Part shown: positions 5,123-43,341 of the stretch, piece after piece
Numbering within the stretch: the stretch's first letter is position 1
Layout: each line of letters starts with the position of its first letter
From: a virus
UHGV virus genome: UHGV-0202726
Strand: one strand, 5' to 3'
DNA length: 44,520 bases
The notes under the pieces: model-generated
Database searches by the model: none
What the model was told of the DNA's origin: nothing
What the model saw: only the letters and a program-made list of their open reading frames with translations
Position numbers and translations under genes: made by a program

Positions 5123-5156
5123 TTCTAAATTCCTTATGTCTCGTTTCGATAAGTGA

Positions 5157-30259: not shown

Positions 30260-30428
30260 AAACATTATGAAAACAATATATGTAATCCGCGTATTCGACG
30301 AAGAATGGGACGAGTGGGTCGATATTTACGCCGTTGGTAGCAAGGAGGAGGCCTCAAAAGAAATGACAGAACGAAGTGATCGAGGCCAGTTAACTAACTT
30401 CTATGAAATGCCATTCAAAAGTGAGTAA
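30252..30428 (+). CDS. hypothetical small protein
   Basis: ATG at 30252 overlapping kinase stop (alternative ATG at 30267); acidic. Confidence 0.35.
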   Translation: MRENIMKTIYVIRVFDEEWDEWVDIYAVGSKEEASKEMTERSDRGQLTNFYEMPFKSE

Positions 30429-30431
30429 GAA

Positions 30432-30458
30432 AAGGCCCCTTTCGGGGCCTTAGTTTTA
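30432..30458. terminator. bidirectional rho-independent terminator
   Basis: AAGGCCCC-TTTC-GGGGCCTT followed by AGTTTTA; between convergent island and major tail gene. Confidence 0.65.
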
Positions 30459-31622
30459 TGCGTAGGTGATACGCTGGATAACAATAGACGACTGGTACTG
30501 GTTGCCGGTAGCCTGGCCTTCAATGGACTGAGTGATTGACTCAGGCCCCCCAATCTCTGGTGTAACCGCCGTGAGTTCTGCACGTTTCAAACTGAAAGAC
30601 ATAGCTCCGTTTACCCCCGCCAGAATAGAGTTAATCTCCACCTGCTGTTCGTTGATAAACTTCTGAATCATCGCCATGTCATACAGCTTACCGGAGATGG
30701 AGAAGGTGTTAGCTGCACGGCTACGCTCCACAAACGCTACGTTAGTGTTGCCTAGTTCGAACTGCGCAGATGCGCTGTTATCGTTGGTGATGGTAAGGCT
30801 ATCGCAACGCAACGGCGTAGAGCCATCGAACACGGAAACGTCAACCGAAGAGAACGGCTCATCGCCAAAAGTAACAGATGAGAAGTTGGAATCGGTCGGC
30901 GGCGTAGTGAGAATCTCCTGACTGCGACCTATGAATGGGAAGCTGCCAGTTACCATCGCGTTAACAGCCTGTTCGATGGTAAAACCAGAAACTTCCACGC
31001 CTTTGGTTAACGTGTACGCGTCAGTACCGCCGCACTGGCCTTTGTACCAGGTAAGGATAGAGAACGTCTTACACGTGTTACCGGTTTCCAGCGTGTCGCC
31101 GGTTTTAGCCTTACTAGTTTTTGTCTCGGTGGTCAGGGTGTGTTGGATGCCTGCACCAGTAACAACCGTAGCCGTTACTGCAGTAACAATAAATGGTTTT
31201 GCGTTATCGCCTGTTAAATCGGTAAATGCAATCAGGTCGCCTACCACAACTCCGTCAGTGATAAAACTGCCGGTAGCGCGTGTGAACGTCTTGCCTGCGG
31301 GTGCGACGGTAATCGACAGACTGGACAGGGAAACACCGGATCGCCACGTAGAGCCTAAAGCACCCGCCAGCCAGTCATCCTGGCTTTTCGAGCTAAGCTC
31401 GATCGCGTATTCACCGCTAACCTGTTTGTTACCGGTGCGGATGGATGTAGTTTCACGGCTGCCGTCCAGTTCGTTGGAGGTCAGCGTGTCGCGGGTGATA
31501 GCAGGAACACCGCCAGTGTTACGCAACGGTGACCAGACCGGGTTAGCCGGTGTTACGCCCGGGGTGACTTCCGCCACATAGAATTGCGCGGTATTCGCGC
31601 CCTTAAAAGGAGTTGTAGCCAT
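30456..31622 (-). CDS. major tail protein
   Basis: About 388 aa, Thr/Ser/Gly-rich; follows the tail terminator-like gene; ATG at 31622 with AGAGG RBS preferred over track GTG 31628. Confidence 0.65.
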   Translation of the reverse strand: MATTPFKGANTAQFYVAEVTPGVTPANPVWSPLRNTGGVPAITRDTLTSNELDGSRETTSIRTGNKQVSGEYAIELSSKSQDDWLAGALGSTWRSGVSLSSLSITVAPAGKTFTRATGSFITDGVVVGDLIAFTDLTGDNAKPFIVTAVTATVVTGAGIQHTLTTETKTSKAKTGDTLETGNTCKTFSILTWYKGQCGGTDAYTLTKGVEVSGFTIEQAVNAMVTGSFPFIGRSQEILTTPPTDSNFSSVTFGDEPFSSVDVSVFDGSTPLRCDSLTITNDNSASAQFELGNTNVAFVERSRAANTFSISGKLYDMAMIQKFINEQQVEINSILAGVNGAMSFSLKRAELTAVTPEIGGPESITQSIEGQATGNQYQSSIVIQRITYA

Positions 31623-31624
31623 AT

Positions 31625-32041
31625 TCACAGCCTCTTGGTGAATGCAATAAAGTTAATTGACAATGGTCGTTTTGCCCATCCGTTTTCTACAATCAGTGGC
31701 CCCAGGCTAACCGATTGAACCTCGGCGCAGATGTTGTTACGTGAAAATGACTTACCTGCTTTAAACGCCGTGTTAAGTAAGTCTGCCATTTTATTGATCG
31801 GCGCGCTACCTTTCACCGATGCGTAGTTAATATCTACCTGGTAGACGCCAGCGCGTTGTTCCGTGAAGAACAAATCAGCCTGTTCCGTATCCGCGAGTAA
31901 CATGTAACTAGCCAGATACGGCGTATCGGTTGACGTCGGCGCGTCGATGTTTTCAAGTGCTACCTTGATGCCGTTGGTGGTTCCGAAGGCTACCAGCGGC
32001 ACGTCGAACGCTTTTGTTAAGTCCTCAAAGTAGCCCATCAT
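31625..32041 (-). CDS. tail completion / tail terminator-like protein
   Basis: 138 aa immediately upstream of the major tail gene; ATGATG overlap with upstream stop. Confidence 0.45.
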   Translation of the reverse strand: MMGYFEDLTKAFDVPLVAFGTTNGIKVALENIDAPTSTDTPYLASYMLLADTEQADLFFTEQRAGVYQVDINYASVKGSAPINKMADLLNTAFKAGKSFSRNNICAEVQSVSLGPLIVENGWAKRPLSINFIAFTKRL

Positions 32042-32433
32042 TTCACCTTGTTGGCTTCTTCGTTAATGAGTTGCTGGAAACGCGATATATTCACCCGGAC
32101 AAATCCTTGCGGCGCCTGTTGCGACCAGCCGTACTCCAGACGCTGTATATACGGCAGGTTATTGGTAAGTGTGAACTCGCTCCAGTCTGTAGCGGTGTTT
32201 ATAACCGCAGTAACACGCTGGATTGTTGCTGTTCCTTGCGGTGCGCCGTAGGTGGTAGTTTCCTGTGACGGAGTACTGCCAGACGCAAACCAGTTATTTC
32301 TCGCACGACCAGTATCAACTGGCGTCGCCTTTATGATAGCGGAAAACAGCTTGATAGACACCTGACGCATCACCTTCTCAGGGTTCTTCTTCGCCTTTTC
32401 CACGAACTTAGAGACATCAAGCGCGAAACTCAT
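32038..32433 (-). CDS. head-tail joining protein (HK97 gp10-like suggested)
   Basis: 131 aa in the connector gene run; weak motif similarity. Confidence 0.5.
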   Translation of the reverse strand: MSFALDVSKFVEKAKKNPEKVMRQVSIKLFSAIIKATPVDTGRARNNWFASGSTPSQETTTYGAPQGTATIQRVTAVINTATDWSEFTLTNNLPYIQRLEYGWSQQAPQGFVRVNISRFQQLINEEANKVK

Positions 32434-32789
32434 TTTCTCACCTGAATAAAGTATGCCACAACATCGTCGTTAACCATCTTCTTCTCGATGGCTTCGATGG
32501 ACCATTGCTCTCCGCCGAATTGTACCTTGTCTTCCATCTTCGGAACGACACTGCAATCCACTTTGACAATCATGTCGCCAGCCTGGATCGTCGTACCGTT
32601 TACCAGTCCCGCGTTTACCGGAACTGGAACGGCCTTCAACGGCAACACTTCATCGTCAGACCAGACGTACTCACCGAGAACTTCATCCCATACTTTCGAA
32701 CCAGCGCGAACAAGAGATACCGTACTGCCGAATTTGGTCAGCAGGCGCGTACCCACGCCTTGCATACGTTTACTGAAAGCGGTGCTCAT
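32430..32789 (-). CDS. head-tail adaptor-like protein
   Basis: ATG at 32789 with GGAGG RBS and ATGA overlap preferred over track start 32843. Confidence 0.45.
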   Translation of the reverse strand: MSTAFSKRMQGVGTRLLTKFGSTVSLVRAGSKVWDEVLGEYVWSDDEVLPLKAVPVPVNAGLVNGTTIQAGDMIVKVDCSVVPKMEDKVQFGGEQWSIEAIEKKMVNDDVVAYFIQVRK

Positions 32790-33403
32790 CAGGCGGCCTC
32801 CAGTCTCGAGATAACCAGTAACGCTGATGGTGCTGTGCCCCATGCGGTCACGGTAGCCGCTTGCGGGTATACGCCGCCGTAGTTGCTTCCGGAGCTATCT
32901 CGCATAATCTGAACGGCAAACGTCTGGCCTGCTGTCGGGTTAATAACGACGCGGGATTCAATCGGAATCGTTACGTCGGCGCTGACCAGTTTAGTAGCTG
33001 CGGGGGAGCCGTACTGAGCGCCGTTAAGGAGAATGCGTGATAAAAGGATTGATGTACCACTCGCCCCTGTACGCCCCGCCTGTAACTTGATACGAACGGC
33101 ATAGTTACCTGCGGTGTTGAATGTAACAAGCCCCGCAGCATTAATCATTACCGGGTCTGACGCGCTACCCTGCGCGGAGCCGAAAGTTAACTGCAACGCC
33201 GTATCTACTGCGGAAGGCGTTTGTGTTACGGTAGACGCAGCGCGGAGAACTTCAACCTCTTTAACACCCGGAGTGGCGTAAATAGGTGAGTCTGCCATCT
33301 GTGTCATTACTTCGCGCAATGCGGCGGGGGTAATAAGTCCGGTGGGGTTATCAGGGAGGTTCGCGCCGATAAGGGTAAACATCTCTGTTTTAGTCTTCGC
33401 CAT
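32789..33403 (-). CDS. hypothetical virion structural protein
   Basis: 204 aa in the connector gene run. Confidence 0.45.
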   Translation of the reverse strand: MAKTKTEMFTLIGANLPDNPTGLITPAALREVMTQMADSPIYATPGVKEVEVLRAASTVTQTPSAVDTALQLTFGSAQGSASDPVMINAAGLVTFNTAGNYAVRIKLQAGRTGASGTSILLSRILLNGAQYGSPAATKLVSADVTIPIESRVVINPTAGQTFAVQIMRDSSGSNYGGVYPQAATVTAWGTAPSALLVISRLEAA

Positions 33404-33405
33404 TT

Positions 33406-33918
33406 TTAACCCCGGTACACATTAAATGAGAAGCCATTGTTAAGCCCGCCACACAGTAACGGGCGTAAGGCGTCGTCCGCAGCGGTAATCGCGGTTGTAG
33501 CGCCACTGTTGCCGTTGTTGAAGTAGGTAACTGTTACTGCACCCTCGACACGCTCGGTCTGTACAGAACGCCCATCAGAGTTAGCCCGCACCTCAGTACC
33601 TGCACCATACGTGGCGGACGCGATTACCTGCGCAAGAATCACCTGTTTCGGGATGACATTGTTCGCGACAGGGAATCCGTTCAGCGTAACGCCGGTGCGC
33701 GGATACGCCAGAGACTGTTCAGCGGATACACGACGACCGCACATCTGCGGTTCTGCAAGCCCGACATACGTAGCGCCGTTGCGCAAAGCCACCTCCGCGG
33801 CGGTATCGTCCGCGGGCAACTCCAGGCCATAATCAGCCGCTAACGCGCGGGCGTCAGCCAGACTAATGTAACTGTCAGCGCCAGGTACTATTGACCCATC
33901 TTCCACGATTAGCGGCAT
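33406..33918 (-). CDS. hypothetical virion structural protein
   Basis: 170 aa in the connector gene run. Confidence 0.45.
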   Translation of the reverse strand: MPLIVEDGSIVPGADSYISLADARALAADYGLELPADDTAAEVALRNGATYVGLAEPQMCGRRVSAEQSLAYPRTGVTLNGFPVANNVIPKQVILAQVIASATYGAGTEVRANSDGRSVQTERVEGAVTVTYFNNGNSGATTAITAADDALRPLLCGGLNNGFSFNVYRG

Positions 33919-33921
33919 AAA

Positions 33922-34101
33922 TTATTCCTCTGACTTACGGCGACGGCGCTTGGCACCACCGCCGTTGTTGTGCGCTTCTTCGTTGTCCGGTTGGGTTGCG
34001 ACCAGTTCATCCGCTTCTACCACACCGCGAACGGGCATCACCTGACCGTCAATAATATCAACGTGGGTGTATTTCTCTCGGATTACATAGTTATCTGCCA
34101 T
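33922..34101 (-). CDS. hypothetical small protein (59 aa) with basic C-terminus
   Basis: ATG at 34101 with AAGGAAAGG RBS; ends 4 nt before the next start. Confidence 0.3.
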   Translation of the reverse strand: MADNYVIREKYTHVDIIDGQVMPVRGVVEADELVATQPDNEEAHNNGGGAKRRRRKSEE

Positions 34102-34137
34102 GACCTTTCCTTATTACGGCCCCGAAGGGCCGTTGTA

Positions 34138-34479
34138 TTAAGGCACAGTTGCTACAGTGCTGCTGGAGATAATATTACCATACGCATCGTGAACAACCAC
34201 TTTATACGTACCAGAATCGGCGGTAGTGGTTGACGCTTTAGCGTAGGTAGCCGCGGTAGCCCCGGCGATGGCGTTGTTGTTCTTATACCACTGGTAGGAA
34301 TACGGCTCCAGACCGCCAGTTACGGTTACGGTCAGTGTCATGGTTTCGCCTGCGGTAACGGAGGTAGTAGCCGCCAGCGCGGACGAGAAAGACGCAGGAG
34401 AAATAGTCACCATGTCAATCTTAGCACCCGGGGCGTCAGCGGAGACGCCGGTGATGCGTCGCTTCAATACGTCTGCCAT
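34138..34479 (-). CDS. Ig-like domain protein (probable capsid decoration)
   Basis: 113 aa; TLTVTVTGG...YQWYKNNN...GTYKVVV pattern of bacterial Ig-like domains; directly downstream of the major capsid gene. Confidence 0.55.
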   Translation of the reverse strand: MADVLKRRITGVSADAPGAKIDMVTISPASFSSALAATTSVTAGETMTLTVTVTGGLEPYSYQWYKNNNAIAGATAATYAKASTTTADSGTYKVVVHDAYGNIISSSTVATVP

Positions 34480-34499
34480 TTAGGAATCCTCTTAGTAAA

Positions 34500-34524
34500 T
34501 GAAAAGAGGGACCGAAGTCCCTCT
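34500..34524 (-). terminator. attenuating terminator after the major capsid gene
   Basis: On minus strand AGAGGGAC-TTCG-GTCCCTCT followed by TTTCATTT. Confidence 0.45.
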
Positions 34525-34540
34525 CGATTATAGCTTAACC

Positions 34541-35590
34541 TTAAGACCCAACACCAGTTACCAGGAAGGCAATCGGTACATGCTTACGGTCAACAACACG
34601 GTTCCAGTTGGAGGCGTTCGCCAGGTCCTGCCAGGAAGCGGAGCGCGGGGTAGTCTCGGTGCCGTTGCCGGTGATCACCGCGCTGGTGAAGCTGTAGCCC
34701 AGTGGGTGCAGCAACCAAGTCTTACGTGTCCACAGGGTTTCGACGCCACCACCGTTACCGCGAGACTCTTCGCGCGCATAGGCCAGCGGGTTGGACGGAG
34801 AACCTTCACCGTAACCAATAGCGCCGTTGCCGAAGATGATGGAGATGAACTTACGGCTGCCACCAGTACCGACTACGGTCATGCTGTCATCAACAATCAC
34901 GCGGTAGCCCTGGTAGGTGGCGAACAGGGTGTCGTTGTCAGCGTTCTTGATGAAGTCAATAAGCTGCTGCTTACGGGCCTGCGCATAAACGAAGCTGTGC
35001 ATCGCAATAGCGCCAAGCACTTCACCGCCGTTGCCCATCAGGGCATCACCCATAGTCTGGGTAGCGTCGATGAACGCGCCTGCATCGAAGCCCAGAGTAG
35101 AGGACACGTCGATTACCATGTCATTCTGCTCGTGGTAAGCATCGGTAGCAGCTACGTTGTCATTGTACAGACCGAGCGCGGTAGCAATCAGACGGCGTTG
35201 TGCCTGACGCTGCCAGAAGTTATCCAGGCGAGAAGCCACAGATTGCAGCGGGTTCTGGCTGGTCAGTTCAACGGTCAGGTCAGCCTGGCCAAAACCTTCG
35301 TTCAGGTAAGCTACGCGCGCCATCATCTCGCCGGTCTGGACATTACGCGGGGTAGCGATGTCCTGGTATACGTCGTTCGAGTAGTTCGGCTCAATAGAAG
35401 TGTCAATCGCTTTCCAGAAAGGAATATTAGCGATGTTGGACGAGCCGCGGGCAATCTCGGCAGCGTATGGAGTCGGGGACAGAATACCAGACTGGAAAAA
35501 CGCGGTTTTTTCTACCGGGTCCTCGGTCATATAAGACGCCAGGACCGGGATGTTGCCAGTTACGATATCGCCGATAGTGGTAATTGCCAT
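34541..35590 (-). CDS. major capsid protein
   Basis: 349 aa directly downstream of scaffold gene; GAGGAA RBS; flanked by attenuator hairpin. Confidence 0.8.
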   Translation of the reverse strand: MAITTIGDIVTGNIPVLASYMTEDPVEKTAFFQSGILSPTPYAAEIARGSSNIANIPFWKAIDTSIEPNYSNDVYQDIATPRNVQTGEMMARVAYLNEGFGQADLTVELTSQNPLQSVASRLDNFWQRQAQRRLIATALGLYNDNVAATDAYHEQNDMVIDVSSTLGFDAGAFIDATQTMGDALMGNGGEVLGAIAMHSFVYAQARKQQLIDFIKNADNDTLFATYQGYRVIVDDSMTVVGTGGSRKFISIIFGNGAIGYGEGSPSNPLAYAREESRGNGGGVETLWTRKTWLLHPLGYSFTSAVITGNGTETTPRSASWQDLANASNWNRVVDRKHVPIAFLVTGVGS

Positions 35591-35592
35591 TA

Positions 35593-36294
35593 TTATTTCC
35601 TCAGGGCTTTAAGTTGCCGTTCAAATTCGGCAGGGTTCGATTTATACAGTGCTAAACGCTCTGCTTCACTCATGTCTTTAAACGCTGGTGCGGCCCCGCC
35701 GCCTTTGCTACCGGAAGCCCCGCCGCCGGAAGCTGCATTTGCTTTAATCAAATGCGAAAACGCTTTGTGTTCGCGCAGGTATTTGCGGAACTGTTCCGGG
35801 TCAGTCGTGATTACGTTGCCGTCTGCGCCGACAAACTTAGTAACCACATCATCGCCTTCGAACTCAGTCTTAACGAACGGCGCAAGGATGTCCACTGCTT
35901 CCGGGGTAATAAAGTCACCCGCGAAAGAGCCTAACACCGCTTTACGTTCGCTGCCGAGGATGCGCTCTGCCATTCTGGAGATGCGGCCATCTTTCTCGGC
36001 TAACACCGGGTCATACTGGCTACGAATCGTCTTTTCGAACTCGTCCATCTTACCTGCGGCTTTTAACGCCTCCTGGTGTGCGCGCTGCCGTTCTTCTTCG
36101 GCCTCTTTTGCTTTGCGAGCGGCTTCTTTCTTCTCCGCCAGCAATGCTTCCTGATTGGCCTTAAGCCCGGCGACTTCTTTCTCAATCAGCGCCTGAACTT
36201 CTTCGGCGGTGAACATTTTCGGCGCGTCACCGCCACCGGCTTTATCTTCTGCCCCAGCTTCTTCCTGGAACGGATAACGTAAAAAACGATTCAT
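35593..36294 (-). CDS. scaffolding protein
   Basis: ATG at 36294 (MNRFLRY...) preferred over track TTG 36348; Ala/Glu/Lys-rich coiled-coil; immediately upstream of the capsid gene. Confidence 0.6.
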   Translation of the reverse strand: MNRFLRYPFQEEAGAEDKAGGGDAPKMFTAEEVQALIEKEVAGLKANQEALLAEKKEAARKAKEAEEERQRAHQEALKAAGKMDEFEKTIRSQYDPVLAEKDGRISRMAERILGSERKAVLGSFAGDFITPEAVDILAPFVKTEFEGDDVVTKFVGADGNVITTDPEQFRKYLREHKAFSHLIKANAASGGGASGSKGGGAAPAFKDMSEAERLALYKSNPAEFERQLKALRK

Positions 36295-36376
36295 AGTCAG
36301 TATGTCCCCTGGACGTTGGAATCCGGGCCACCCGGATTTACATGTCAAGAATAAATTATTCCAACATGCAAGGCAA

Positions 36377-36640
36377 CTATTCCAGAATATTCCTCACGTA
36401 GTCCTGCAACATGAACACTTTCAGTCTCAGTTGCCGTACACATTCAGCGTTCTGAACGTCGATAGCTAAATCCTCGTCCGCGTCGCTACTTGGTGCCGCC
36501 AGTTTGCACGGCGGCTGCATCATCGTCGTATCCGGGGATGGAATTGGCATTTGCGACGGCGCGGGACTTGAGCTGCACGCGCTCAGGGTCAAAAGTGCAC
36601 ACGCTGCGACCAGGCGTTTTAATGTACTTAACGACTTCAC
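36377..36640 (-). CDS. o-spanin (Rz1-like outer-membrane lipoprotein)
   Basis: Signal peptide with lipobox LSAC, Pro-rich mature part; overlaps the 3' end of the i-spanin gene in another frame. Confidence 0.6.
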   Translation of the reverse strand: MKSLSTLKRLVAACALLTLSACSSSPAPSQMPIPSPDTTMMQPPCKLAAPSSDADEDLAIDVQNAECVRQLRLKVFMLQDYVRNILE

Positions 36641-36872
36641 GGGTGATCACCTCTGATTTCGTCTTGCCTTCGTTGTCAGCGGCTGCGGCCTTCGATTCAT
36701 CCTGCTGCTGCCGTTGTGTTTTCTTCGCTAACGCAGCCTGTGCTTTCTGCTGTTGCTGCGAAACGAGATTCGCCCGGCCTTCGTTCCAGCCGATGCGGTA
36801 TTGATAGTAGCCGTGGGCATATAACAGGATGATGAAACATGCCCCTGCTACGACAGTTGCTTTAAGATTCAT
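36486..36872 (-). CDS. i-spanin (Rz-like)
   Basis: N-terminal transmembrane anchor, Gln/Ala-rich coiled-coil, periplasmic C-terminus; overlapped by Rz1-like ORF. Confidence 0.65.
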   Translation of the reverse strand: MNLKATVVAGACFIILLYAHGYYQYRIGWNEGRANLVSQQQQKAQAALAKKTQRQQQDESKAAAADNEGKTKSEVITREVVKYIKTPGRSVCTFDPERVQLKSRAVANANSIPGYDDDAAAVQTGGTK

Positions 36873-37123
36873 GTTTCTCCTTTCTCGATAAGTAAAGCCC
36901 CGCCATAAAGCGGGGCGCTAGTCCTTATCATTTAAACATAGAAACGGCGTAATCTCAGTAAACCCGTTCCTTTTTACACAAGCAATAGAGTATGGCCCTT
37001 CCGAACGCGTCAGCGTAACTACACTCAGGACTTACGTCCCGCTCCGTTACCTGCCCGCGCCGCGGTCGCTTGTTCATACTTCACAAGCTCAGGTGGAGCT
37101 TATCACATTTTTAGTGAAAAGTC

Positions 37124-37139
37124 AACTATTCGAATAGTT
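37124..37139. repeat. perfect 16-bp palindrome AACTATTCGAATAGTT
   Basis: Read directly; lies in the 340-bp non-coding region upstream of the Rz gene; shares the GAATAG/CTATT core with the promoter-associated motif. Confidence 0.9.
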
Positions 37140-37189
37140 TATTCCAACATTTACAATTAGGAGGAATAACTGGAATAATAACAGGCGCT

Positions 37190-37209
37190 AAAAAGCCCCT
37201 TTCGGGGCC
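37190..37209 (-). terminator. rho-independent terminator downstream of the Ig-like gene
   Basis: AGCCCC-TTTC-GGGGCT hairpin followed on minus strand by TTTT. Confidence 0.5.
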
Positions 37210-37214
37210 TTAGT

Positions 37215-37676
37215 TTATTCAGGCTTAGTGACCTTCGCCGCTTTACTGACGGCCTCTACACCATCGGCATCGGTAACTTTAACGAAGTATTCGCCTGCCG
37301 CGTTAACCGTAAGAGACAAAGCCTCTTCGGGTGCGTTTACAACTTCCTTACCATCTTTGTACCAGGTCAGAGCATACGGCGCTTTACCAGCCTTAACTTC
37401 GACCGTGATAGTTGCGCTGCCGTCTGCCAGTTCTGTGTCTTTCGGTTGCACCGAGAAATACACGTCGCCAGCATCAGCCAGATACGGAATTTCATAAAGC
37501 ATACCCGCCGCCGGCAGCGCAATACCGGTTTTATCTGCAAACGGCATGTCGTCTACTGGTGTACCAAGTACACTTTCATCTTCGATAAATACCACGTTCT
37601 CACCAGAACCAGACACTCGGGCGTACTGAACTACGCGACGCGACGGTACATCAGTTACTTTGAAAAAGCCCATCAT
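37215..37676 (-). CDS. Ig-like domain protein
   Basis: 153 aa; C-terminal ITVEVKAGKAPYALTWYKDGKEV...GEYFVKVTD pattern of Ig-like domains. Confidence 0.5.
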   Translation of the reverse strand: MMGFFKVTDVPSRRVVQYARVSGSGENVVFIEDESVLGTPVDDMPFADKTGIALPAAGMLYEIPYLADAGDVYFSVQPKDTELADGSATITVEVKAGKAPYALTWYKDGKEVVNAPEEALSLTVNAAGEYFVKVTDADGVEAVSKAAKVTKPE

Positions 37677-38752
37677 TAATCCCCTTTCAGATAATCAGCA
37701 ACACGTTTATCGAGTTCCGCCATCTGCTTAAGCGTGAGCGGATTCCCGAAACCATCTACAGATATTACGCGAAACTCTTCCGGCGATATACCGCTGTTGC
37801 GGAAAATCTTACCTCGCACCGGGCCGAGCGCCTGGTCCTGAAACCATGCGGGTTGTTGTTTCAGGAACTCGTAGTAAGTGGTGTCTGCGCTTACCTGAGT
37901 ACCGCCATCCGCACCCTTAGCCGCGCGTTTTGCACCTTTATCAAGGAAGTCGAACTCGGAACTGATTACCGGAGCCGTGCACGACCGGCAGTTCGGATGG
38001 GCGGGTGGCATCGGCCCTTTACCGATTTCCCACGTCATCCCGTCTCTGGCCCTGCAAATCGTACTGGTACGGCTGTCCAGCGTCGACACCCACTCGTACT
38101 TCTCGATGATGTCGTCGTTCTGGCGGTACGTCTCGTTACGTGCTTCGTTGGATACGTGAGACAGAGCGGTGCGGATTACCGTCGCAGCGTTTCGTTCTGA
38201 AATGTCCGCCAGTCCACCAGCGCCTACGACATTTTTAACAATCTGCCGTGTGGTTTGGCCTTGTACGAAACCCATCTTAACGCCAGTTACCAGGCGCGCG
38301 ACCTCCGTTTCACCCCAGCCAGACATCAGCTTCGTGAAATCAACAGGCTTGTCACTTAACGATAATGGCTGAAACTCGGCAGCGGCCCACACCTGTTCTG
38401 CGGTAGGCGTAACAAATTCCGCGTTAACGTTAGCCGTCAGCGTCTTTACGTTCCACTCAGCCTCATATGCCACCAGTTCCTTAAGGTCTTCTGTCAGTTT
38501 TGTTTGCCAGTCACCGGTAAGTCCTGCCAGTGCTTCTTCGAGGTCGCGTAACAGTTTATTCAGTCGCGCAGTGCTGCGACCGTCGTCACCGAATAGCAGA
38601 ACCTGCCGTTTGATTTCGTCTCGCATCTCCTGAATGAATGGTGTGAGGTCTTTCACTTCACCGGAAGCGGCTCGTTGTAGCCATATCTGGTGGCTTATTA
38701 GGGATGTAAGTAAGCTCATAGATAAACCCTGTGGTGCTAAAGTTAATAGCAT
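37676..38752 (-). CDS. head morphogenesis protein (Mu F / SPP1 gp7-like)
   Basis: 358 aa directly downstream of portal; PPAHPNCRSCTAP motif typical of the Mu F-like minor head protein family; alternative ATG at 38719. Confidence 0.7.
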   Translation of the reverse strand: MLLTLAPQGLSMSLLTSLISHQIWLQRAASGEVKDLTPFIQEMRDEIKRQVLLFGDDGRSTARLNKLLRDLEEALAGLTGDWQTKLTEDLKELVAYEAEWNVKTLTANVNAEFVTPTAEQVWAAAEFQPLSLSDKPVDFTKLMSGWGETEVARLVTGVKMGFVQGQTTRQIVKNVVGAGGLADISERNAATVIRTALSHVSNEARNETYRQNDDIIEKYEWVSTLDSRTSTICRARDGMTWEIGKGPMPPAHPNCRSCTAPVISSEFDFLDKGAKRAAKGADGGTQVSADTTYYEFLKQQPAWFQDQALGPVRGKIFRNSGISPEEFRVISVDGFGNPLTLKQMAELDKRVADYLKGD

Positions 38753-38760
38753 ACTATAAG

Positions 38761-38778
38761 AAAGCCCCTTTCGGGGCT
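38761..38778 (-). terminator. GC hairpin between portal and head morphogenesis genes (attenuator or processing site)
   Basis: AAAGCCCC-TTTC-GGGGCT; no strong U tract. Confidence 0.3.
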
Positions 38779-38788
38779 ATATGCGAAC

Positions 38789-40270
38789 TTACCGCTGAAT
38801 GGTATCTTGTTGCTGCGCCGACTGCGGAATCTCCCCCGCTACCTTGGTAACCGCGCCCATCGGCAGAGGTGCATCCTCGATAGCGTTCTGAATGTCCTCA
38901 TCCGTCCAGTCAGTTACACCCGCCTTACGCAACGCTGCGTAGTAAGCAGTAGCCGGTAACAGGCCTGCGTTAATGTCCGCCATCCACTGTGCACGGTCCT
39001 GAGCGGTCATAGGCTGCAGGAAGAACTCCATATTCAGCTTGAACTCAATCTCTGTGCCTTCACGTAGCCCTAGCATCGCAGCAACCCAGCGCAACGCATC
39101 TGTATACGCCATGCTTACGTTACGTGCGATTGTTGCCATAACGGACGTATCAGCGCCGCGTTGCAGCCGGGCCGATTCCGCGGTGATTTGCTGCGTCTGG
39201 GTGATAAGCTGCGCACCAATCTGGATGGCCTGATTCTCTTTGTCCAGCATATTCTGTTTGGCGAGGTTGTTCTCTCCCGCCTGAACCAGAAACGCATTGC
39301 CGCCGTAACCGATGTTATGGCCTGAGCGCGACCCCATGCGCACGCCGTGTGGGTTGGCTTCTGCCCACTGTTCCATGCTCATGTTCTCACCCGGGGCGAT
39401 GAACAGAGTGGGCTGGCCTACAACGAAGCTGGATTCCTCATTGTCCGCGCTGTTGCGGAAATGTCCGATATTAAGCTCAGCCAACGGCAGCAAAGGTGCG
39501 TCGTCGATGGTTGCATCGTTGTTGCTTGCGCCGATGAACGTGAACGGGATTTTGCCGCGCAACTGTTCGCCAAGTTCCGGGAAGATTTCTTTTACTTCAC
39601 CCTGTGCGCCACCTTCTGCATCGAAGCGGTAAATGCGCTGACGGTAGCGTCCATCAATAAGGTCAAGGACGCGATATTGCTCACCGAACTTTGTTTCGAA
39701 CTCTGCACCCGGTTCTGAGTATTCCCACACCTCACGCAGCACTACCATTGTCACGCGGTTAACCGAACCGATACGGGTCAGTCGCCAGTTGATGATGTTC
39801 TCCGCGGTATAGAACGCGATGACCGGGTTTAATAAACCGGCGTTCTGTTCAGCTGCCGTCGCCGCAGCCGTCTCCGGGGCGTCCACCAGCAACCCACCAC
39901 GCCCTACCGAGTCAATCTCCATCAACGTGTCCTGCGCGTGCTGCCACAGCCCGACGCCAGAACCGTCAGCGTTGCGTAACAGGTACTCCAGTTCAGGTGG
40001 AATGATCTGTTCCGGGTCTTTGCGCATGACACTGCCAACCATCCCCGCCAGGGTGCGTTTAGTGAAGTTGTAGCAGATAGCCCCGTTCTCGTATTCTTCC
40101 TGGCGCTGTGCCGCGTAGGCCGGGTCTGGTTCGTTCTTCCCGACATTTCGAAGATAGCGAATAAGGTCGCCTTCCAGTGCGTGGCGTACCTTCTGCCATT
40201 TATCGAAGTGATGCAGCCATTCCCGGTGTTTTGTCTTAACACCCTGATTCTGACCGTTCATAGTTAACAT
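38789..40270 (-). CDS. portal protein
   Basis: 493 aa immediately downstream of the terminase large subunit. Confidence 0.75.
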   Translation of the reverse strand: MLTMNGQNQGVKTKHREWLHHFDKWQKVRHALEGDLIRYLRNVGKNEPDPAYAAQRQEEYENGAICYNFTKRTLAGMVGSVMRKDPEQIIPPELEYLLRNADGSGVGLWQHAQDTLMEIDSVGRGGLLVDAPETAAATAAEQNAGLLNPVIAFYTAENIINWRLTRIGSVNRVTMVVLREVWEYSEPGAEFETKFGEQYRVLDLIDGRYRQRIYRFDAEGGAQGEVKEIFPELGEQLRGKIPFTFIGASNNDATIDDAPLLPLAELNIGHFRNSADNEESSFVVGQPTLFIAPGENMSMEQWAEANPHGVRMGSRSGHNIGYGGNAFLVQAGENNLAKQNMLDKENQAIQIGAQLITQTQQITAESARLQRGADTSVMATIARNVSMAYTDALRWVAAMLGLREGTEIEFKLNMEFFLQPMTAQDRAQWMADINAGLLPATAYYAALRKAGVTDWTDEDIQNAIEDAPLPMGAVTKVAGEIPQSAQQQDTIQR

Positions 40271-40282
40271 TGAATAATCCTC

Positions 40283-41533
40283 TTAAAGTGCGAAAGTCAC
40301 CGGGATGTTGATTACTGGTTTAACCACCGGCATCTCGTAAACTACAGGGTAGCCGAGAGCATCCGCCATATGGTCAATGATGCCGTCTTTAGCTGGCTCT
40401 CCGTTATCATCGTATGCCTGCTGTTCCAGCGTCTTGGCTATCTCGGGGCATAAGTGGTCATTAACCCACAGCTTACCTTTTTCCAGCGCGGTATTCACTG
40501 CTAAAACACGGTCTTTAACCGGAGGGTTGGCGGATTTAGCGCGAACATCGAACCCGGCCTGCTGGAGTAATGCAATATCAGAGATTGACGCTGAGTTTGT
40601 CTTGCGGTTCTTGCCGCTGGCATCGGGGTAAACGACAATGCGGTGGCCCTGCGACTTCCACTTCTCGGTAATTACACGCACGGTGTCTGGTGTATCGAAC
40701 AGGCCCTTCAGTTCCGCCACCGCGTGCCAGCCGTCTTTTCGCTGTACATATACGGCGCTCGCGTTCTTCGTAACGTTGAAGTCCTGCCCGATGTACAGCG
40801 TGTCGCCCGGTTGAATTGTCTCTTTGCTGCGGTGCTTACGGCGGTCATACGCGTAATACACGCTGCCGGAGGTAAGGTTGACGAACTCACCGTTCAGATA
40901 CGCGTTAATCAGTTGCGCCGGATAAGTCTCGGTCAGCGAGCTAATGTAGTCCGGCGGCAGAAAACGCGCATTCTCATGTGTGGATGCCTGCACCATCGAG
41001 TAACTAGGCGTCGGGTTCTCTTTGAACTTGGCGTAGACGAACTTGAACCCTTCTGGCGTCGTGGTGACAGAGATGTGGTTAGTTATGCCAGGAATAACCA
41101 GACGCATACGGGCTACAATTTTGTTCCACGCCAGCTCAGCTTTCTCGCGACTCAATACGTCCAGCTCATCCACGACAGCTGCGGCGATTTTGAAGCCCAC
41201 AATCGAGCCAGGGTTATCCATTGAACGGCAGATAACAGTTCCGAGCACCGTCTTACCGCGAGTAACCACAACCTCTTTGTCGCCGGATTTAACCAGCACA
41301 TCGAGGCCAAGCAGGTTAGCCGCTTCCTCGAATGTCGGGTAGAAGATGTCGCGTATAGCGGGATATGTCGGGCCGAAGTATCCAAGGCGCGTACCTGGAT
41401 GCTTGAGCATGAACGTAAGCAGGTCCAGACAGCCCACAAACGTCTTGCCACTGCCGAAGCCGCCGACGTATGCTTTGTATTTATTGTCACAATTCAGGAA
41501 CAAAGCCTGTGGCGCGGATAGCTGAATACTCAT
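40283..41533 (-). CDS. terminase large subunit
   Basis: 416 aa; Walker A GGFGSGKT near N-terminus; nuclease-like C-terminal half; overlaps small subunit stop. Confidence 0.85.
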   Translation of the reverse strand: MSIQLSAPQALFLNCDNKYKAYVGGFGSGKTFVGCLDLLTFMLKHPGTRLGYFGPTYPAIRDIFYPTFEEAANLLGLDVLVKSGDKEVVVTRGKTVLGTVICRSMDNPGSIVGFKIAAAVVDELDVLSREKAELAWNKIVARMRLVIPGITNHISVTTTPEGFKFVYAKFKENPTPSYSMVQASTHENARFLPPDYISSLTETYPAQLINAYLNGEFVNLTSGSVYYAYDRRKHRSKETIQPGDTLYIGQDFNVTKNASAVYVQRKDGWHAVAELKGLFDTPDTVRVITEKWKSQGHRIVVYPDASGKNRKTNSASISDIALLQQAGFDVRAKSANPPVKDRVLAVNTALEKGKLWVNDHLCPEIAKTLEQQAYDDNGEPAKDGIIDHMADALGYPVVYEMPVVKPVINIPVTFAL

Positions 41534-42075
41534 TCCTCTACCTCACCCATATTCGTTGTTACGATTTTACCCACAGGCTCCGCAACACTGAAAATAATCT
41601 CTGTTGGCGCTGTTTCTTCGGTCGATTCAACCGGTTTCTCTTTGCCGAGTCCCAGCTTCGCGGCGGCAAACGTAGCAGAGATGCCCGCGGCCCCAGTCTC
41701 AGTGAAATATGCCTCTTCCAGTGCCTGTGCTGTTTCATAGGCTTCGGCAAATGCGGGAATCTCGCGCAGCCACAGCTTAATAATCGGGATAGTGACGCCG
41801 ATATGTAAGGCAAAGCGGGCCAGAGATGGTGGCTTATCCTGAATCAGCGGACGTTCGTCACCTTTGGACGTAGGCACCAGTTCCCACGACGTGCGGTCGA
41901 AGAACTCGATTAATTCGTCGCAATAGTCCGGGTCCCACAACGCGGCGGAATTACGGGATGATTGATAAAGGCTCTGTTTGCCACGCGGTCGTCTACGGCG
42001 ACGGTTTGCGCTAACCGCTTCTTCATGTGCAGCTTGCACCACCTCTGGCGATGGCTGCTTAAGTTTCAGCTTCAT
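41530..42075 (-). CDS. putative terminase small subunit
   Basis: ATG at 42075 with AAGGGGA RBS preferred over track start 42114; basic N-terminus RRRRRPRGK; position directly upstream of the large subunit. Confidence 0.5.
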   Translation of the reverse strand: MKLKLKQPSPEVVQAAHEEAVSANRRRRRPRGKQSLYQSSRNSAALWDPDYCDELIEFFDRTSWELVPTSKGDERPLIQDKPPSLARFALHIGVTIPIIKLWLREIPAFAEAYETAQALEEAYFTETGAAGISATFAAAKLGLGKEKPVESTEETAPTEIIFSVAEPVGKIVTTNMGEVEE

Positions 42076-42170
42076 AGAATCCCCTTGCTTATGCGTCTGA
42101 CCATCAGAGCGCATCAGACGCGCCCTACGCGTCTAAAAGGATTATATAAGGGGATTGGGAGGGATGTACA

Positions 42171-42192
42171 GAAAAGCCCTCCGTAGAGGGCT
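42171..42192 (-). terminator. rho-independent terminator separating the small-gene operon from the terminase operon
   Basis: AGCCCTC-TACG-GAGGGCT followed on minus strand by TTTTCTGT. Confidence 0.55.
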
Positions 42193-42251
42193 TGTATCAG
42201 TTATATAGGCCGTGTCGTGGTGCTCTTTTACCATCGCCGCCGTAATGGTCG

Positions 42252-42524
42252 TTAGCTACGACTATAGTCCAGGCATTCGGAAAGACTAAAAGTCGCATTA
42301 AATTCCTCAAGGTCTATTTTACGAATACATGGTGAAAGGCAATCAGCGAAAACCAACTCACCAGAATCAATAACGACGAACCGCCAGCCTTTGAATATGT
42401 TCTCGGAAATACCCTCTGCAACTTCGCGAACATTAGGCATGTGTTCTGGGAAATCGTGGAAGTTTCTGGACAAAAATTCAAGTGCCTCACACCGGTTTAT
42501 GTGGTAATTATCATATTCAATCAT
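42252..42524 (-). CDS. hypothetical protein
   Basis: 90 aa; overlaps upstream gene stop. Confidence 0.45.
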   Translation of the reverse strand: MIEYDNYHINRCEALEFLSRNFHDFPEHMPNVREVAEGISENIFKGWRFVVIDSGELVFADCLSPCIRKIDLEEFNATFSLSECLDYSRS

Positions 42525-42757
42525 TCCCCACTCTCCTCTTTAGCAATGCGTTGCTCGGTTTTAGTGATACCGCGTCGCGTGAATAACACCGGGCTTGTCT
42601 TAACGTGCGTCATCAGACGGTTGTTATAAATTACGTGGCGCTCGCAATCAACGTCTTTGCTGTACTTCGCAATCGTCATTTCGTTGATGCCGGTTTGACG
42701 GCATGTCTCGGCCATCGTGCCGTATTCTTTAATCAGGTTCGGAATGCTGGTAATCAT
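42521..42757 (-). CDS. hypothetical protein with HTH-like segment
   Basis: ATG at 42757 in ATGA overlap with upstream ORF preferred over track GTG 42781; GTMAETCRQTGINEMTIAKY. Confidence 0.45.
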   Translation of the reverse strand: MITSIPNLIKEYGTMAETCRQTGINEMTIAKYSKDVDCERHVIYNNRLMTHVKTSPVLFTRRGITKTEQRIAKEESGE

Positions 42758-42924
42758 CCTACGAAATTCCTCGTTGTCCACATCGCATTCGGATATTTGT
42801 TATCGCGGTCCTGCACTACGGCAATCATGTTCCCACGTTGCACCAGGCAGAAGTGCCGTTGTTGCTCGCCGTTGTAACGACGCCATATTGCTTCTTCGAT
42901 TGCCGCGTTGATGTCACTGAACAT
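42754..42924 (-). CDS. hypothetical small protein (56 aa)
   Basis: Fills the gap between 42927 and 42757 exactly; ATGA overlap at its 3' end. Confidence 0.3.
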   Translation of the reverse strand: MFSDINAAIEEAIWRRYNGEQQRHFCLVQRGNMIAVVQDRDNKYPNAMWTTRNFVG

Positions 42925-42926
42925 AA

Positions 42927-43121
42927 TTACCCTACTATCTCATCACCAAGCCACGCCGTTTCTCGTATATCGTCTACCACACAAGCAGCGTGCTCACGGC
43001 TAATTGCAAAAATGTAGAAGCTGAACTTCTTCCCGTCGGCGTCGATGTGGTTAACCGAGTAGGGTTTCCACAGAACGCCATCGATAACTACTGGTTTAGG
43101 AGACTCCATACGCTTTACCAC
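42927..43121 (-). CDS. hypothetical protein
   Basis: Track ORF (GTG start); alternative ATG at 43109; no clear RBS. Confidence 0.4.
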   Translation of the reverse strand: MVKRMESPKPVVIDGVLWKPYSVNHIDADGKKFSFYIFAISREHAACVVDDIRETAWLGDEIVG

Positions 43122-43341
43122 ATTTAACGCATGTCACTCGATGTACCCCATCAAAATGTATGTAGTAGTCGTGTGCACAAGGCCTTTCGTCCGCTTTCAA
43201 CTTATCAAGTAACTGCTTAAACGCCTCCAGTTGAAACTCACCGTTAATTGACAGTTGTCCGCCTAACGTCTGTTTCTCTGACTCGAGTACCAGAATACGG
43301 CGCTCGAGTGATGCGATTGTTATTTTAGGCATTGGCGTCAC
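43096..43341 (-). CDS. hypothetical coiled-coil protein with C-terminal zinc-ribbon-like Cys/His
   Basis: CAHDYYIHFDGVHRVTCVKCG; overlaps neighbours. Confidence 0.45.
   Translation of the reverse strand: MTPMPKITIASLERRILVLESEKQTLGGQLSINGEFQLEAFKQLLDKLKADERPCAHDYYIHFDGVHRVTCVKCGKAYGVS

Follow-up and report, generated by a model that had tools for sequence, protein, structure and literature searches.

Two-component spanins consist of an i-spanin in the inner membrane and an o-spanin, an outer-membrane lipoprotein, which together bridge the periplasm and disrupt the outer membrane after the holin and the endolysin have acted. The closest described system is the Jersey family, whose members include K1G, K1H, K1ind1-3, Jersey, and SETP3 (Kongari et al. 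2018, PMC6139136), and in which the two spanin genes of Jersey overlap by 155 bp (PMC6139136). The placement of spanins apart from the holin and endolysin has also been published already (PMC6139136, PMC6763661), and in the Kagunavirus phage Schulenberg the spanins are likewise distant from the holin and endolysin genes. The DNA analyzed here, referred to as the window, is the whole 44,520-nt stretch of UHGV-0202726; it is a complete Kagunavirus genome. Its spanin pair does not differ in any substantive way from the Jersey family (PMC6139136), sharing the architecture, the length of the overlap, the o-spanin cysteines, and the PHROG families, with a nucleotide identity of 93 to 95% to K1G-type phages, and is a further isolate of genes that are already known, published, and catalogued.

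The initial annotation had described an overlapped Rz/Rz1-like pair with a lipobox in the second gene, and the coordinates, the PHROG matches, and the hydropathy all agree that the pair is real. The i-spanin matches PHROG 2536 ("Rz-like spanin") with an E value of 2e-56 and is annotated as i-spanin in phage Sciku. It has an N-terminal transmembrane segment (Kyte-Doolittle 17-mer maximum of 2.06 at residues 3 to 19), beyond which the protein is polar and Q/A/K rich by hydropathy. The o-spanin gene begins within the i-spanin gene in another frame and runs past the i-spanin stop, giving an overlap of 155 bp, and its product matches PHROG 5672 (Rz-like spanin; E=3e-30) as well as PHROG 1267. Its signal, MKSLSTLKRLVAACALLTLSAC, was verified on the sequence to contain the lipobox LSAC with Cys22, in the context MKSLSTLKRLVAACALLTLSA before the cysteine and SSS after it. 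Under the lipoprotein sorting rule, Asp at +2 is the residue for inner-membrane retention; the +2 residue here is Ser, not Asp. Cys45 and Cys67 of the o-spanin occupy the invariant cysteine positions of the Jersey family (PMC6139136). Judged from their sequences, the two ORFs make up a true two-component spanin with the overlapped Jersey-family architecture. Many GenBank records truncate the o-spanin to 47 aa, a form that has no lipoprotein signal, and other errors in these records are swapped i-spanin and o-spanin labels and the annotation of a spurious ORF in the leader described below.

As had been proposed, the pair lies between head genes, with a Hoc-like head gene on one side and the scaffold gene on the other. 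Both holins (857-1165 and 592-864) and the endolysin (129-614) were confirmed by PHROG and Pfam, the endolysin matching Pfam Phage_lysozyme at 6e-26. The reported distance of 35 kb between the spanins and this cassette holds in the linear coordinates of the window and fails on the circular map, where it is 7.8 kb: the ends of the window abut in a relative deposited as circular, and the 35-kb figure is therefore a linearization artifact. By the short path, 7,776 nt separate the endolysin stop from the i-spanin start, with the endolysin upstream on the same strand. The features of the locus are listed in Table 1. A scan for tRNA and tmRNA genes found none, and a "tRNA-Ser" annotated in phage demigod, which sits on terminator T1 and is antisense to the end of the Hoc-like gene, is regarded as false.

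Table 1. Coordinates of the lysis cassette, the spanin genes, and the features around them in the window
Feature	Position	Strand	Basis or remark
Holin, holin, and endolysin cassette	129-1165	-	Pfam and PHROG matches
Scaffold 5'-region hairpin, ATCCGGG-TGG-CCCGGAT	36321-36337	-	Compensatory versions in relatives
Promoter-like region before scaffold gene, TTGCCT, 17 nt, TATTCT	36348-36376	-	Overlaps TGG-AATAAT
o-Spanin (Rz1-like lipoprotein), 87 aa, GTG start	36377-36640	-	ORF; lipobox; PHROG 5672 and 1267
i-Spanin (Rz-like, Jersey family), 128 aa	36486-36872	-	ORF; PHROG 2536; hydropathy; Sciku annotation
Predicted leader 3' domain, multitier hairpin topped by T2	36864-36956	-	Folds; compensatory T2 changes
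Spacer between Hoc-like gene and i-spanin	36873-37214		342 bp
T2, candidate terminator, GC-rich hairpin then UUUACUUAUC	36897-36916	-	24 nt before i-spanin AUG
40-aa ORF within leader	36955-37077	-	"Hypothetical protein" in several GenBank records
Predicted leader 5' domain, hairpin P1 then long irregular hairpin P2-P3-P4	37001-37090	-	Folds, covariation
Predicted P1 hairpin pairing	37088-83 with 37073-68	-	Folds
Leader/spanin promoter, TTGACT, 17 nt, TG-n-TAAGCT (extended -10)	37097-37125	-	Read directly; conservation
Two overlapping palindromes, GAATAAACTATTC and CTATTCGAATAG	37126-37144	.	Between divergent promoters
Divergent promoter-like site, TTTACA, 18 nt, TGG-AATAAT	37150-37179	+	Faces accessory-gene slot
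T1, after Hoc-like gene, hairpin GGCCCCGAAAGGGGC then T5	37195-37209	.	Symmetric GC hairpin, T-runs on both strands

The reading that we prefer, with a probability of about 0.75, is that these are standard Guernseyvirinae spanins at a conserved, nonmobile site in the late structural block and that the locus is distinguished by an expression signal in the form of a structured leader. All 47 IMG/VR loci share the order of Hoc-like gene, spacer, spanins, spacer, and scaffold gene, which is complete wherever the upstream sequence suffices; these loci were retrieved with the i-spanin as the query (62 to 97% tblastn identity), so all of them contain it. A further IMG/VR scan with an alignment of the i-spanin yielded one additional locus (L055). 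The same gene order was seen in the annotated records examined from Kagunavirus, Jerseyvirus, and Cornellvirus, and no relative with these flanks that lacked the spanin pair was found among the IMG/VR loci and the annotated Guernseyvirinae records examined.

The initial annotation had suggested a separately acquired lysis module, pointing to a motif that recurs on both sides of the pair. The recurrence itself was confirmed: the exact 12-mer ATGTTGGAATAA (reverse complement, TTATTCCAACAT) has its only copies in the window at 36356-36367 and 37139-37150. Identical flanks of this kind could be expected of a cassette that is mobile or was captured recently, with a 12-bp direct repeat at its ends, and the slot is indeed variable at greater evolutionary depth, being empty in Shewanella phage 3/49 and occupied in Serratia phage Eta by a full and unrelated holin-endolysin-Rz cassette. 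That reading is nevertheless scarcely credible for the spanins discussed here. Checking the flanks in relatives revealed no presence/absence polymorphism across the Guernseyvirinae loci examined, in which the pair was always there; homology of the spanins extends over all three genera (56 to 97% identity); and one locus (L034) has a recombination breakpoint within the i-spanin gene, near codon 45. Nor do the two repeat copies behave as the ends of a cassette, as the upstream copy is changed in Jersey-type (J-type) phages (TTCATGAATAC) and the downstream copy stays beside the scaffold gene in Cornellvirus, where an extra gene parts the o-spanin from it. No genome with fused repeat copies and without spanins was seen. 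By our estimate, finding a single 12-mer repeated within 44.5 kb is unremarkable on its own. The 12-mer is part of two promoter-proximal GAATA-N3-TATTC sites and is no cassette boundary; what stands out is this palindromic core, of which there are two exact copies and eight with at most one mismatch (1.2 expected; 0 of 100 shuffles reached this number), and which is kept in the Jersey-type phages, where the upstream 12-mer is not conserved. On these comparisons of sequence and gene order, a mobile or recently acquired spanin cassette is not supported.

The spacer of about 340 bp had been reported to hold a terminator and a palindrome, and both are present, the palindrome, AACTATTCGAATAGTT at 37124-37139, being perfect over 16 bp. 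We interpret the 342 bp as a transcription unit in which a structured leader of ~215 nt follows an extended -10 promoter, with a predicted start near 37090 and a predicted end near 36890. Among 38 relatives, substitutions in the promoter are confined to its spacer and the "n" position, with the TG and both hexamers invariant, and the record of phage PVP-SE2 has a promoter annotated at the equivalent position. The divergent promoter-like site includes both TTATTCC copies, and relatives of both the K type and the J type conserve its hexamers. The two overlapping palindromes that lie between these promoters are a candidate site for a dimeric regulator. A hypervariable slot for antisense cargo adjoins the leader and is empty in UHGV-0202726. 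The earlier suggestion that the pair is separately regulated or acquired can therefore be kept in its first half, which the promoter, the leader, and the hairpin make plausible, and not in its second. It is very likely that spanin expression has a control point of its own, comprising this promoter, the structured leader, and a terminator-like hairpin.

Conservation of the leader is high (median identity of 97.8%) compared with the third codon positions of the Hoc-like gene (71%), the i-spanin (84%), the scaffold (91%), and the capsid gene (78%). In Salmonella phages whose i-spanin is only 75 to 84% identical, the K-type leader is still 94 to 97% identical. The spacer was found in 182 GenBank records in its K-type form and in 269 in its J-type form. 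Rfam gave zero matches for the whole window at gathering thresholds and only chance-level matches for 36850-37230 at E values up to 10. Because a BLAST search of the spacer against 5,426 complete Escherichia coli genomes returned nothing, we consider it to be neither host derived nor prophage borne. Scanning 185,579 genomes of bacteria and archaea for a strict motif produced two matches, one on a 738-bp contig of a Taishania assembly that is a Jerseyvirus contaminant and the other a chance match in GC-rich coding DNA; a looser motif scan of IMG/VR was discarded since chance matches swamped its output. A search of this genome for a second copy of the leader found only the T1 hairpin repeated. 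The Cornellvirus leader has no sequence-level alignment with the K and J types and no obvious terminator; it folds into covarying hairpins and a similar GUAA-capped hairpin, with no confident alignment to the other two types.

A micro-protein of 36 to 40 aa encoded in the spacer is a highly improbable source of this conservation. Of the 31 K-type variants, 24 have the ORF intact, and the records of Sciku, Bas73, and PVP-SE2 annotate it. It is disrupted in the other seven, however, four having indels that shorten it to 9 to 17 aa, two lacking its start, and one carrying a frameshift, and it is missing from all Jersey-type leaders, which keep the RNA structure nonetheless. The region is conserved without a codon signature, the least conserved positions not being the third codon positions of the ORF, and searches of Pfam and PHROG gave no match to a known family. 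The ORF was judged to be noncoding.

The leader folds more stably than shuffled sequences (z-score of -2.8), and the K-type and J-type leaders, folded separately, have a common P1-P2-P3-P4 layout. The local P1 hairpin suits both types, unlike the long-range AGUAUG/CAUACU pairing of the single-sequence lowest-energy fold, which was rejected, its 3' strand varying freely and uncompensated. Compensatory changes occur in the P2, P3, P4, and T2 stems. Within the K type, there are five two-sided pair changes, compared to 0.6 in shuffled alignments (0 of 500 reached five) and 0 to 1 in slid controls. Between the types, a C-G pair of P2 is replaced by U-A in 11 sequences, C-G pairs of T2 are replaced by G-C, A-U, or U-A, and the lower stem, formed by GAUAAG/CUUAUC in the K type, has AUACG/CGUAU as its J-type counterpart. 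As most of the sequences are close relatives, the covariation as a whole depends on few lineages (L019/L004, L020, L030, and the J type). The 3' domain is predicted to pair GAGAUU with codons 2 and 3 of the i-spanin, GUUUCU with the AGAAAC immediately ahead of the AUG, and GAUAAG with CUUAUC. Pairing of the start region is predicted in both types (-36.8 and -27.5 kcal/mol), with the outer tiers using different registers in K and J. A joint RNAalifold of the 3' domain recovered the T2 stem alone and missed the outer tiers because MAFFT offsets them, and the same offset made the J-type lower stem appear unpaired in one joint comparison. The lowest-energy structure of one J variant (L040) is without the outer tiers, and Sciku (L001) has a mismatch in them.

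Compensatory changes would preserve hairpins in DNA as well as in RNA, and the spacer is a recombination junction beside the hypervariable slot; its conservation could on these grounds reflect a function of the DNA itself, for example in packaging, as a replication origin, or as a recombination hotspot. We regard this as very improbable, as the promoter, the strand orientation, and the terminator fit together coherently as a transcription unit, the structure reaches into the ribosome-binding site and the first codons, and neither iterons nor an AT-rich unwinding element was seen in the spacer.

T2 is a candidate leaky terminator or attenuator. Its U-run is merely UU in Jersey-type phages, and because the run is so poor, T2 may not terminate at all. 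This bears on whether the leader is instead mainly a trans-acting small RNA of ~195 nt, running from the promoter to T2 and acting on host or phage mRNAs, with its position next to the spanins incidental. Such an RNA would have its own promoter, a terminator-like 3' hairpin, and extreme conservation, including the invariant, predicted single-stranded stretches UUCGGAAGGGCC, CUAUUGCUU, and AGAUUACGCCGU, and the 6S RNA of lambda (194 nt, from the late operon, Hfq bound and processed) provides a precedent. We consider it unlikely, however. After T2, the K type has the tail UUUACUUAUC and the J type the tail UUAGCGUAU, and this short U-run (UUUACUU and UUAGCG, respectively) is unlike the long U-tail of Hfq-type small RNAs; the lower stems reach beyond the terminator to the AUG and covary between the types; and no complementarity or homology to E. 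coli genomes was detected at the level of BLAST.

A different role for the 5' domain would be that of a cis-acting antitermination RNA of the HK022 put kind, allowing read-through of T2 and of the terminators that resemble T1. The T1 hairpin is repeated at 38764, 30435, and 17659, so that four near-identical terminator hairpins punctuate the late genes, and the layout of a promoter, two stem-loops, and a terminator is what a put-like element would have. Searches of the 37 small ORFs for the Pfam families of Q-type and N-type antiterminator proteins found none, the only DNA binders among them being HTH_17, HTH_3, and NinH-like proteins; many of these ORFs are unassigned, and a novel factor is conceivable. 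This role seems doubtful all the same. The element is present in a single copy and at no other operon start, and the genes from terminase to the Hoc-like gene are also late and yet lie upstream of it. P1 and the P2-P4 hairpin are adjacent (0 to 2 nt apart), they have no sequence relation to HK022 put or to any Rfam family, and the case for antitermination is one of similar layout alone.

Under our preferred reading of a conserved spanin site with a structured leader, the 342-bp spacer would carry two back-to-back promoters with a palindromic site between them, and the one facing the spanins would start the leader of ~215 nt. The 3' domain of the leader would form a long hairpin with a weak intrinsic terminator at its tip and a base that would pair with codons 2 and 3 of the i-spanin and with the nucleotides separating the ribosome-binding site from the AUG. 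Most transcripts might then end at this hairpin or remain folded, so that spanin synthesis would be low or delayed relative to that of the head genes. Transcription of the scaffold and capsid genes would restart from the conserved element downstream of the o-spanin. This element is a promoter-like region that holds the second 12-mer copy and the palindrome GAATAATTTATTC; its hexamers are conserved in three genera, with the intervening spacer variable, and the hairpin in the scaffold 5' region has compensatory versions in Jerseyvirus (CACCGGG..CCCGGTG) and Cornellvirus (AGCCGGG..CCCGGCT).

The spanin pair and its separation from the holin and endolysin genes confirm the published annotation of K1G- and Jersey-type phages and offer nothing new. 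The only possibly new item is the unannotated, highly conserved leader, which probably throttles spanin expression. A broader hypothesis, to which we would give slightly less than even odds, is that the spacer represents an undescribed RNA family restricted to the Guernseyvirinae, a two-domain leader of ~215 nt with its own promoter that occludes the i-spanin start as a lysis checkpoint, is perhaps also an abundant late small RNA, and forms a regulatory hub together with the palindrome and the accessory slot. If the leader truly gates spanin synthesis, it would be a rare case in which the last step of lysis is under dedicated control at the RNA level. The idea is testable, as these phages are easily grown and are widely used in therapy and biocontrol, and cargo, whether accessory or engineered, has a convenient natural site in the hypervariable slot. 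The practical value of the analysis lies in its corrections, both of the distance produced by linearization and of the faulty spanin and leader annotations in GenBank.

Spanin genes that are unlinked to the other lysis genes are also known from T4 (pseT.3/pseT.2); unlike that case, the spanins here are within the head-morphogenesis block, on the same strand as the lysis cassette and only 7.8 kb downstream of it. In the same slot, Serratia phage Eta has a comparable arrangement of Hoc-like gene, terminator, antisense small gene, divergent promoters, lysis genes, and scaffold gene; it differs in that the slot contains an entire holin-endolysin-Rz cassette, the Rz of which is unrelated to the i-spanin described here. 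The lambda N leader and sites in the T7 early mRNA are phage 5' leaders that are processed by RNase III or occluded by structure, and the leader here resembles them in having a predicted long irregular hairpin with internal loops upstream of, and overlapping, a translation start, with no relation in sequence. In the late leader of lambda, the PR' promoter is followed by the 194-nt 6S RNA, the tR' terminator, the S-R-Rz/Rz1 genes, and then the head genes. The locus described here is predicted in silico to have the same succession of promoter, leader of ~200 nt, and intrinsic terminator directly upstream of lysis genes. It differs from lambda in that the sequences are not similar, the leader precedes the spanins alone, and the predicted RNA is far more structured, with a 3' hairpin that extends into the start region of the first gene.

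Kagunavirus Escherichia phages matched 36200-37400, and then 30000-44520, at 90-95% nucleotide identity in megablast searches. The relatives recovered included the Guernseyvirinae phages K1G, K1ind1-3, ST20, Golestan, and Sciku, and the Salmonella Jersey-type phages showed weaker identity than Kagunavirus. The length of 44,520 bp is the full genome length for the Kagunavirus group, both ends abut in the circular deposit of phage Bas73, and headful packaging has been reported for a sister phage (PMC6776780). Holins, endolysin, terminase, portal, head genes, and spanins are all carried on the minus strand. The gap of about 35 kb that the initial annotation placed between spanins and lysis cassette is the long way round; along the minus strand and over the window junction, 7,776 nt separate the endolysin stop (129) from the i-spanin start (36872), and the corresponding distance in Bas73 is ~7.6 kb. 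Small open reading frames at ~1166-6050 and 42115-44520 had Pfam matches that included a homologue of the Ral antirestriction protein (E = 2e-30) and an HslV-like peptidase, and HTH_17, HTH_3, and NinH-like DNA binders are encoded among the small phage ORFs.

All of the features listed initially are present, and the spanin ORFs, lipobox, holins, and lysozyme were confirmed. The o-spanin N terminus reads MKSLSTLKRLVAACALLTLSA followed directly by Cys22, giving the lipobox LSAC with Ser at +2. The spanin reading of the two ORFs is right, yet it is already in the literature. Kongari et al. (2018) defined a "Jersey" family of overlapped spanins, including those of K1G, K1H, and K1ind1-3, in which the two genes overlap by 155 bp and o-spanin cysteines 45 and 67 are invariant (PMC6139136). 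The pair studied here agrees exactly in both overlap and cysteine positions, and the central point of the initial annotation has therefore been published. Several annotation problems were seen in GenBank relatives (Bas73 5861-6004, Golestan E1_8, K1G-type RefSeq, PVP-SE2 ORF_51/52, demigod 11898-11975): the o-spanin is annotated as a 47-amino-acid fragment that lacks the lipoprotein signal, PVP-SE2 has the names of i-spanin and o-spanin interchanged, a "hypothetical protein" is annotated within the leader described below, and a doubtful tRNA-Ser lies over terminator T1 (demigod 11898-11975).

Coordinates of lysis genes and of the leader terminator-like hairpin
Feature	Position	Strand	Remarks
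i-spanin ORF	36486-36872	-	ORF call; N-terminal hydrophobic segment; PHROG "Rz-like spanin," E = 2e-56
o-spanin ORF	36377-36640	-	GTG start; PHROG "Rz-like spanin," E = 3e-30
Holins	857-1165 and 592-864	-	Confirmed
Endolysin, lysozyme family	129-614	-	Confirmed
T2, terminator-like hairpin of leader	36916-36897	-	7-8-bp GC stem, then UUUACUUAUC

The 342-bp spacer between the Hoc-like gene and the i-spanin (36873-37214) is, judged by the order of its motifs, a transcription unit. On the minus strand it contains the terminator hairpin of the Hoc-like gene (T1, 37195-37209), ATTATTCCAGTTATTCC...TGTAAAT, palindromes (including the perfect one at 37124-37139), TTGACT-17 nt-TG-n-TAAGCT, a leader of ~215 nt, and the i-spanin AUG. 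Read on the other strand, ATTATTCCAGTTATTCC...TGTAAAT is promoter-like (TTTACA, 18 nt, TGG-AATAAT). Among 38 relatives, the leader promoter changed in its spacer and in the "n" of TG-n, and the TG and hexamers never changed. The Jersey-type (J-type) spacer has diverged in sequence and keeps the layout (TAGACT, 17 nt, TG-n-TACGCT), and the PVP-SE2 record annotates a promoter at the equivalent place. T1 is one of four near-identical hairpins (AAGGCCCC-N4-GGGGCCTT; 38764-38777, 37195-37209, 30435-30448, and 17659-17672) that follow the genes for the portal, the Hoc-like protein, the major tail protein, and the tailspike across the late block; all are symmetric and probably bidirectional.

The repeated motif flanking the spanins was found again as the 12-mer ATGTTGGAATAA, with an exact copy at 36356-36367 only, and the exact 12-mer is restricted to Kagunavirus. 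The 12-mers were rejected as cassette ends, since the upstream copy diverges in the Jersey type (TTCATGAATAC or TTCAGGAATAC) and the downstream copy is still immediately 5' of the scaffold gene in Cornellvirus, where an antisense gene intervenes before the o-spanin. These sites are promoter-proximal elements. They share the palindromic core GAATA-N3-TATTC, whose two exact genome copies both lie in the spanin-flanking spacers, and the extended -10-like TGGAATAA(T). With at most one mismatch, the core has 8 matches against 1.2 expected (0 of 100 shuffles reached 8), and a dimeric regulator may bind there.

Conservation and covariation indicate strong selection on the leader as RNA. Its median identity is 97.8% across 32 loci of the Kagunavirus type (K type), compared with third-codon-position identities of 71%, 84%, 91%, and 78% in the neighboring Hoc-like, i-spanin, scaffold, and capsid genes. 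Salmonella phages with an i-spanin just 75-84% identical still carry the K-type leader at 94-97%; in GenBank, the K type occurs in 182 records and the Jersey type in 269. The leader folds more stably than shuffled sequences (z = -2.8), and a divergent K-type variant (L030) and Jersey-type leaders, folded independently, gave one common architecture, in which hairpin P1 is followed directly by a long irregular hairpin, P2-P3-P4. P2 consists of CCG.GGYGCG paired with CGCRUU.CGG. In the K-type alignment, both sides changed in 5 pairs (0.6 in shuffles, 0/500), and sliding the partners by one to three columns left 0-1 pairs. Between the types, 11 sequences have U-A in place of C-G at one P2 pair, and one pair of T2 is replaced by G-C, A-U, or U-A. 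P4 differs by lineage as GGGAC/GUCCU, CGGAC/GUCCG, GGUGC/GCAC(U), or GGGCGU/ACGCCC. That a function at the DNA level explains the conservation seems to us very improbable.

A 40-amino-acid ORF annotated in the leader in some records was considered and rejected, as it is truncated by indels, startless, or absent in many variants; it had no family match in Pfam or PHROG. No Rfam family matched the leader, and no leader homology was found in E. coli genomes. The sole true match in a scan of 185,579 prokaryotic genomes was a phage contaminant contig: this locus (L060; NZ_JACVEL010000048.1, Taishania pollutisoli, 738 bp), in a Bacteroidota assembly, is Jerseyvirus DNA spanning the Hoc-like gene end, leader, and i-spanin start, and is almost certainly contamination of the assembly. 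The conserved leader RNA is the sole candidate for novelty at the locus. It also contains a direct repeat (37083-37088 and 36978-36983) that covaries between types, both copies reading GCUUGUG in K-type leaders and GCUUUCAG in J-type leaders. Copy one forms the 5' strand of P1. Copy two of the K type could also pair with the P1 partner strand, making an alternative folding possible.

In the 3' domain, the T2 tail of the Jersey type is just UUAGCG, and T2 would thus be a weak terminator at best. A second stem lies beneath it (GAUAAG/CUUAUC in K, AUACG/CGUAU in J), and when the first codons are included, two more tiers are predicted in both types, with stabilities of -36.8 (K) and -27.5 (J) kcal/mol. 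In the K type, GUUUCU (36945-36940) is predicted to pair with AGAAAC (36878-36873), which separates the Shine-Dalgarno sequence from the AUG, and the invariant AGAUU (36956-36951) with AAUCU of codons 2-3; the predicted J-type equivalents are GUAU/AUAC and GAUUCG/UGAAUU. From these models, we infer that the outer tiers may pair with the i-spanin start region. Their register is not the same in the two types, RNAalifold on a MAFFT alignment did not recover them, and they are absent from the lowest-energy structure of one J variant.

It is most likely that the leader attenuates spanin expression from within the late block twice. T2 would cause partial termination and the folded translation start would restrict initiation, keeping the membrane-fusing spanin pair low or late. 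A conserved element 3' of the o-spanin (TTGCCT, 17 nt, TATTCT, and a 5' hairpin covarying across three genera) would then restart or stabilize abundant scaffold and capsid expression. The stem of this scaffold 5' hairpin (36321-36337) varies in a compensatory manner among Kagunavirus, Jerseyvirus, and Cornellvirus, and the loop is TGG, GGG, CGG, or AGG; the hairpin is not a terminator, because no U-run follows it, and may stabilize the mRNA 5' end. RNase III cleavage of the long leader hairpin would be one possible route to freeing the start site; the lambda N and T7 leaders are processed by RNase III. The leader might instead be a trans-acting small RNA, by analogy with the lambda 6S late leader (194 nt, Hfq binding, and read through under Q), which we regard as unlikely. 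Less likely still is a put-like antitermination RNA. Among 37 small ORFs, no antiterminator protein of the Q or N family was detected. In the favored scheme of attenuation, the suggestion of separate regulation remains plausible, given the promoter and leader layout in the spacer, whereas that of separate acquisition is unsupported.

Acquisition was assessed in 47 IMG/VR loci, retrieved via the i-spanin and compared segment by segment. In all loci with enough flank, the order was head morphogenesis, Hoc-like Ig, spacer, spanins, 83-nt spacer, and scaffold. Spanins also lie directly upstream of the scaffold gene in annotated Jerseyvirus (PVP-SE2) and Cornellvirus (Shemara, VSiP) genomes; the i-spanin of Cornellvirus shares 56% identity with that of the window, and the "separated" spanin arrangement of that lineage has been described before (PMC6139136). 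No genome among these loci and the annotated Guernseyvirinae relatives had the flanks without spanin genes. The L034 i-spanin is chimeric, Kagunavirus-like in residues 1-45 and identical to the Jersey type in the remainder, which places a recombination breakpoint inside the supposed cassette. Three Salmonella phage loci (L034, L035, and L048; locus positions 2197-2887) are mosaics of a Kagunavirus-type part (Hoc-like gene, leader, and first ~45 i-spanin codons) and a Jersey-type part (remaining i-spanin codons plus the o-spanin); the breakpoint was read directly in L034 only and deduced from segment identities in L035 and L048.

The modularity initially suspected of the spanins actually resides in a slot beside the leader. 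Relatives carry 0 to ~800 bp of extra DNA between T1, which has T-runs at both sides, and position 37176; the slot is empty here (37177-37194), and the divergent promoter-like site leads straight into T1. Insert-bearing loci include L006, L007, L008, L010, L011, L012, L014, L016, L018, L032, and L035 (about 1390-2196). The inserts represent at least 12 unrelated classes, nearly all with a main ORF that runs antisense to the spanin genes. Cargo includes a lipoprotein, an HNH-like protein, small membrane peptides, and a 173-amino-acid protein from an insert class whose XY2 homologue seems to be the one annotated as "sliding clamp." Every insert is preceded by the same ~55-nt adapter, AAATAGTTTGCA...TATAATAGGGTACTATTCAG, and then a ribosome-binding site.

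At greater evolutionary depth, the region between the head genes and scaffold is variable, and the spanins are fixed residents within Guernseyvirinae. Shewanella phage 3/49 has nothing between the head-morphogenesis gene and scaffold, and Serratia phage Eta (L051, 442-2762) has a complete holin-endolysin-Rz cassette between the Hoc-like gene and scaffold, with an Rz unrelated to the window i-spanin. This variability points to the gap between head accessory genes and scaffold as an old lysis-gene locus of the wider phage group. The layout in Eta suggests the same ancient role, as its syntenic slot shares the terminator, antisense small gene, and divergent promoters of the window group and differs in holding the whole lysis cassette.
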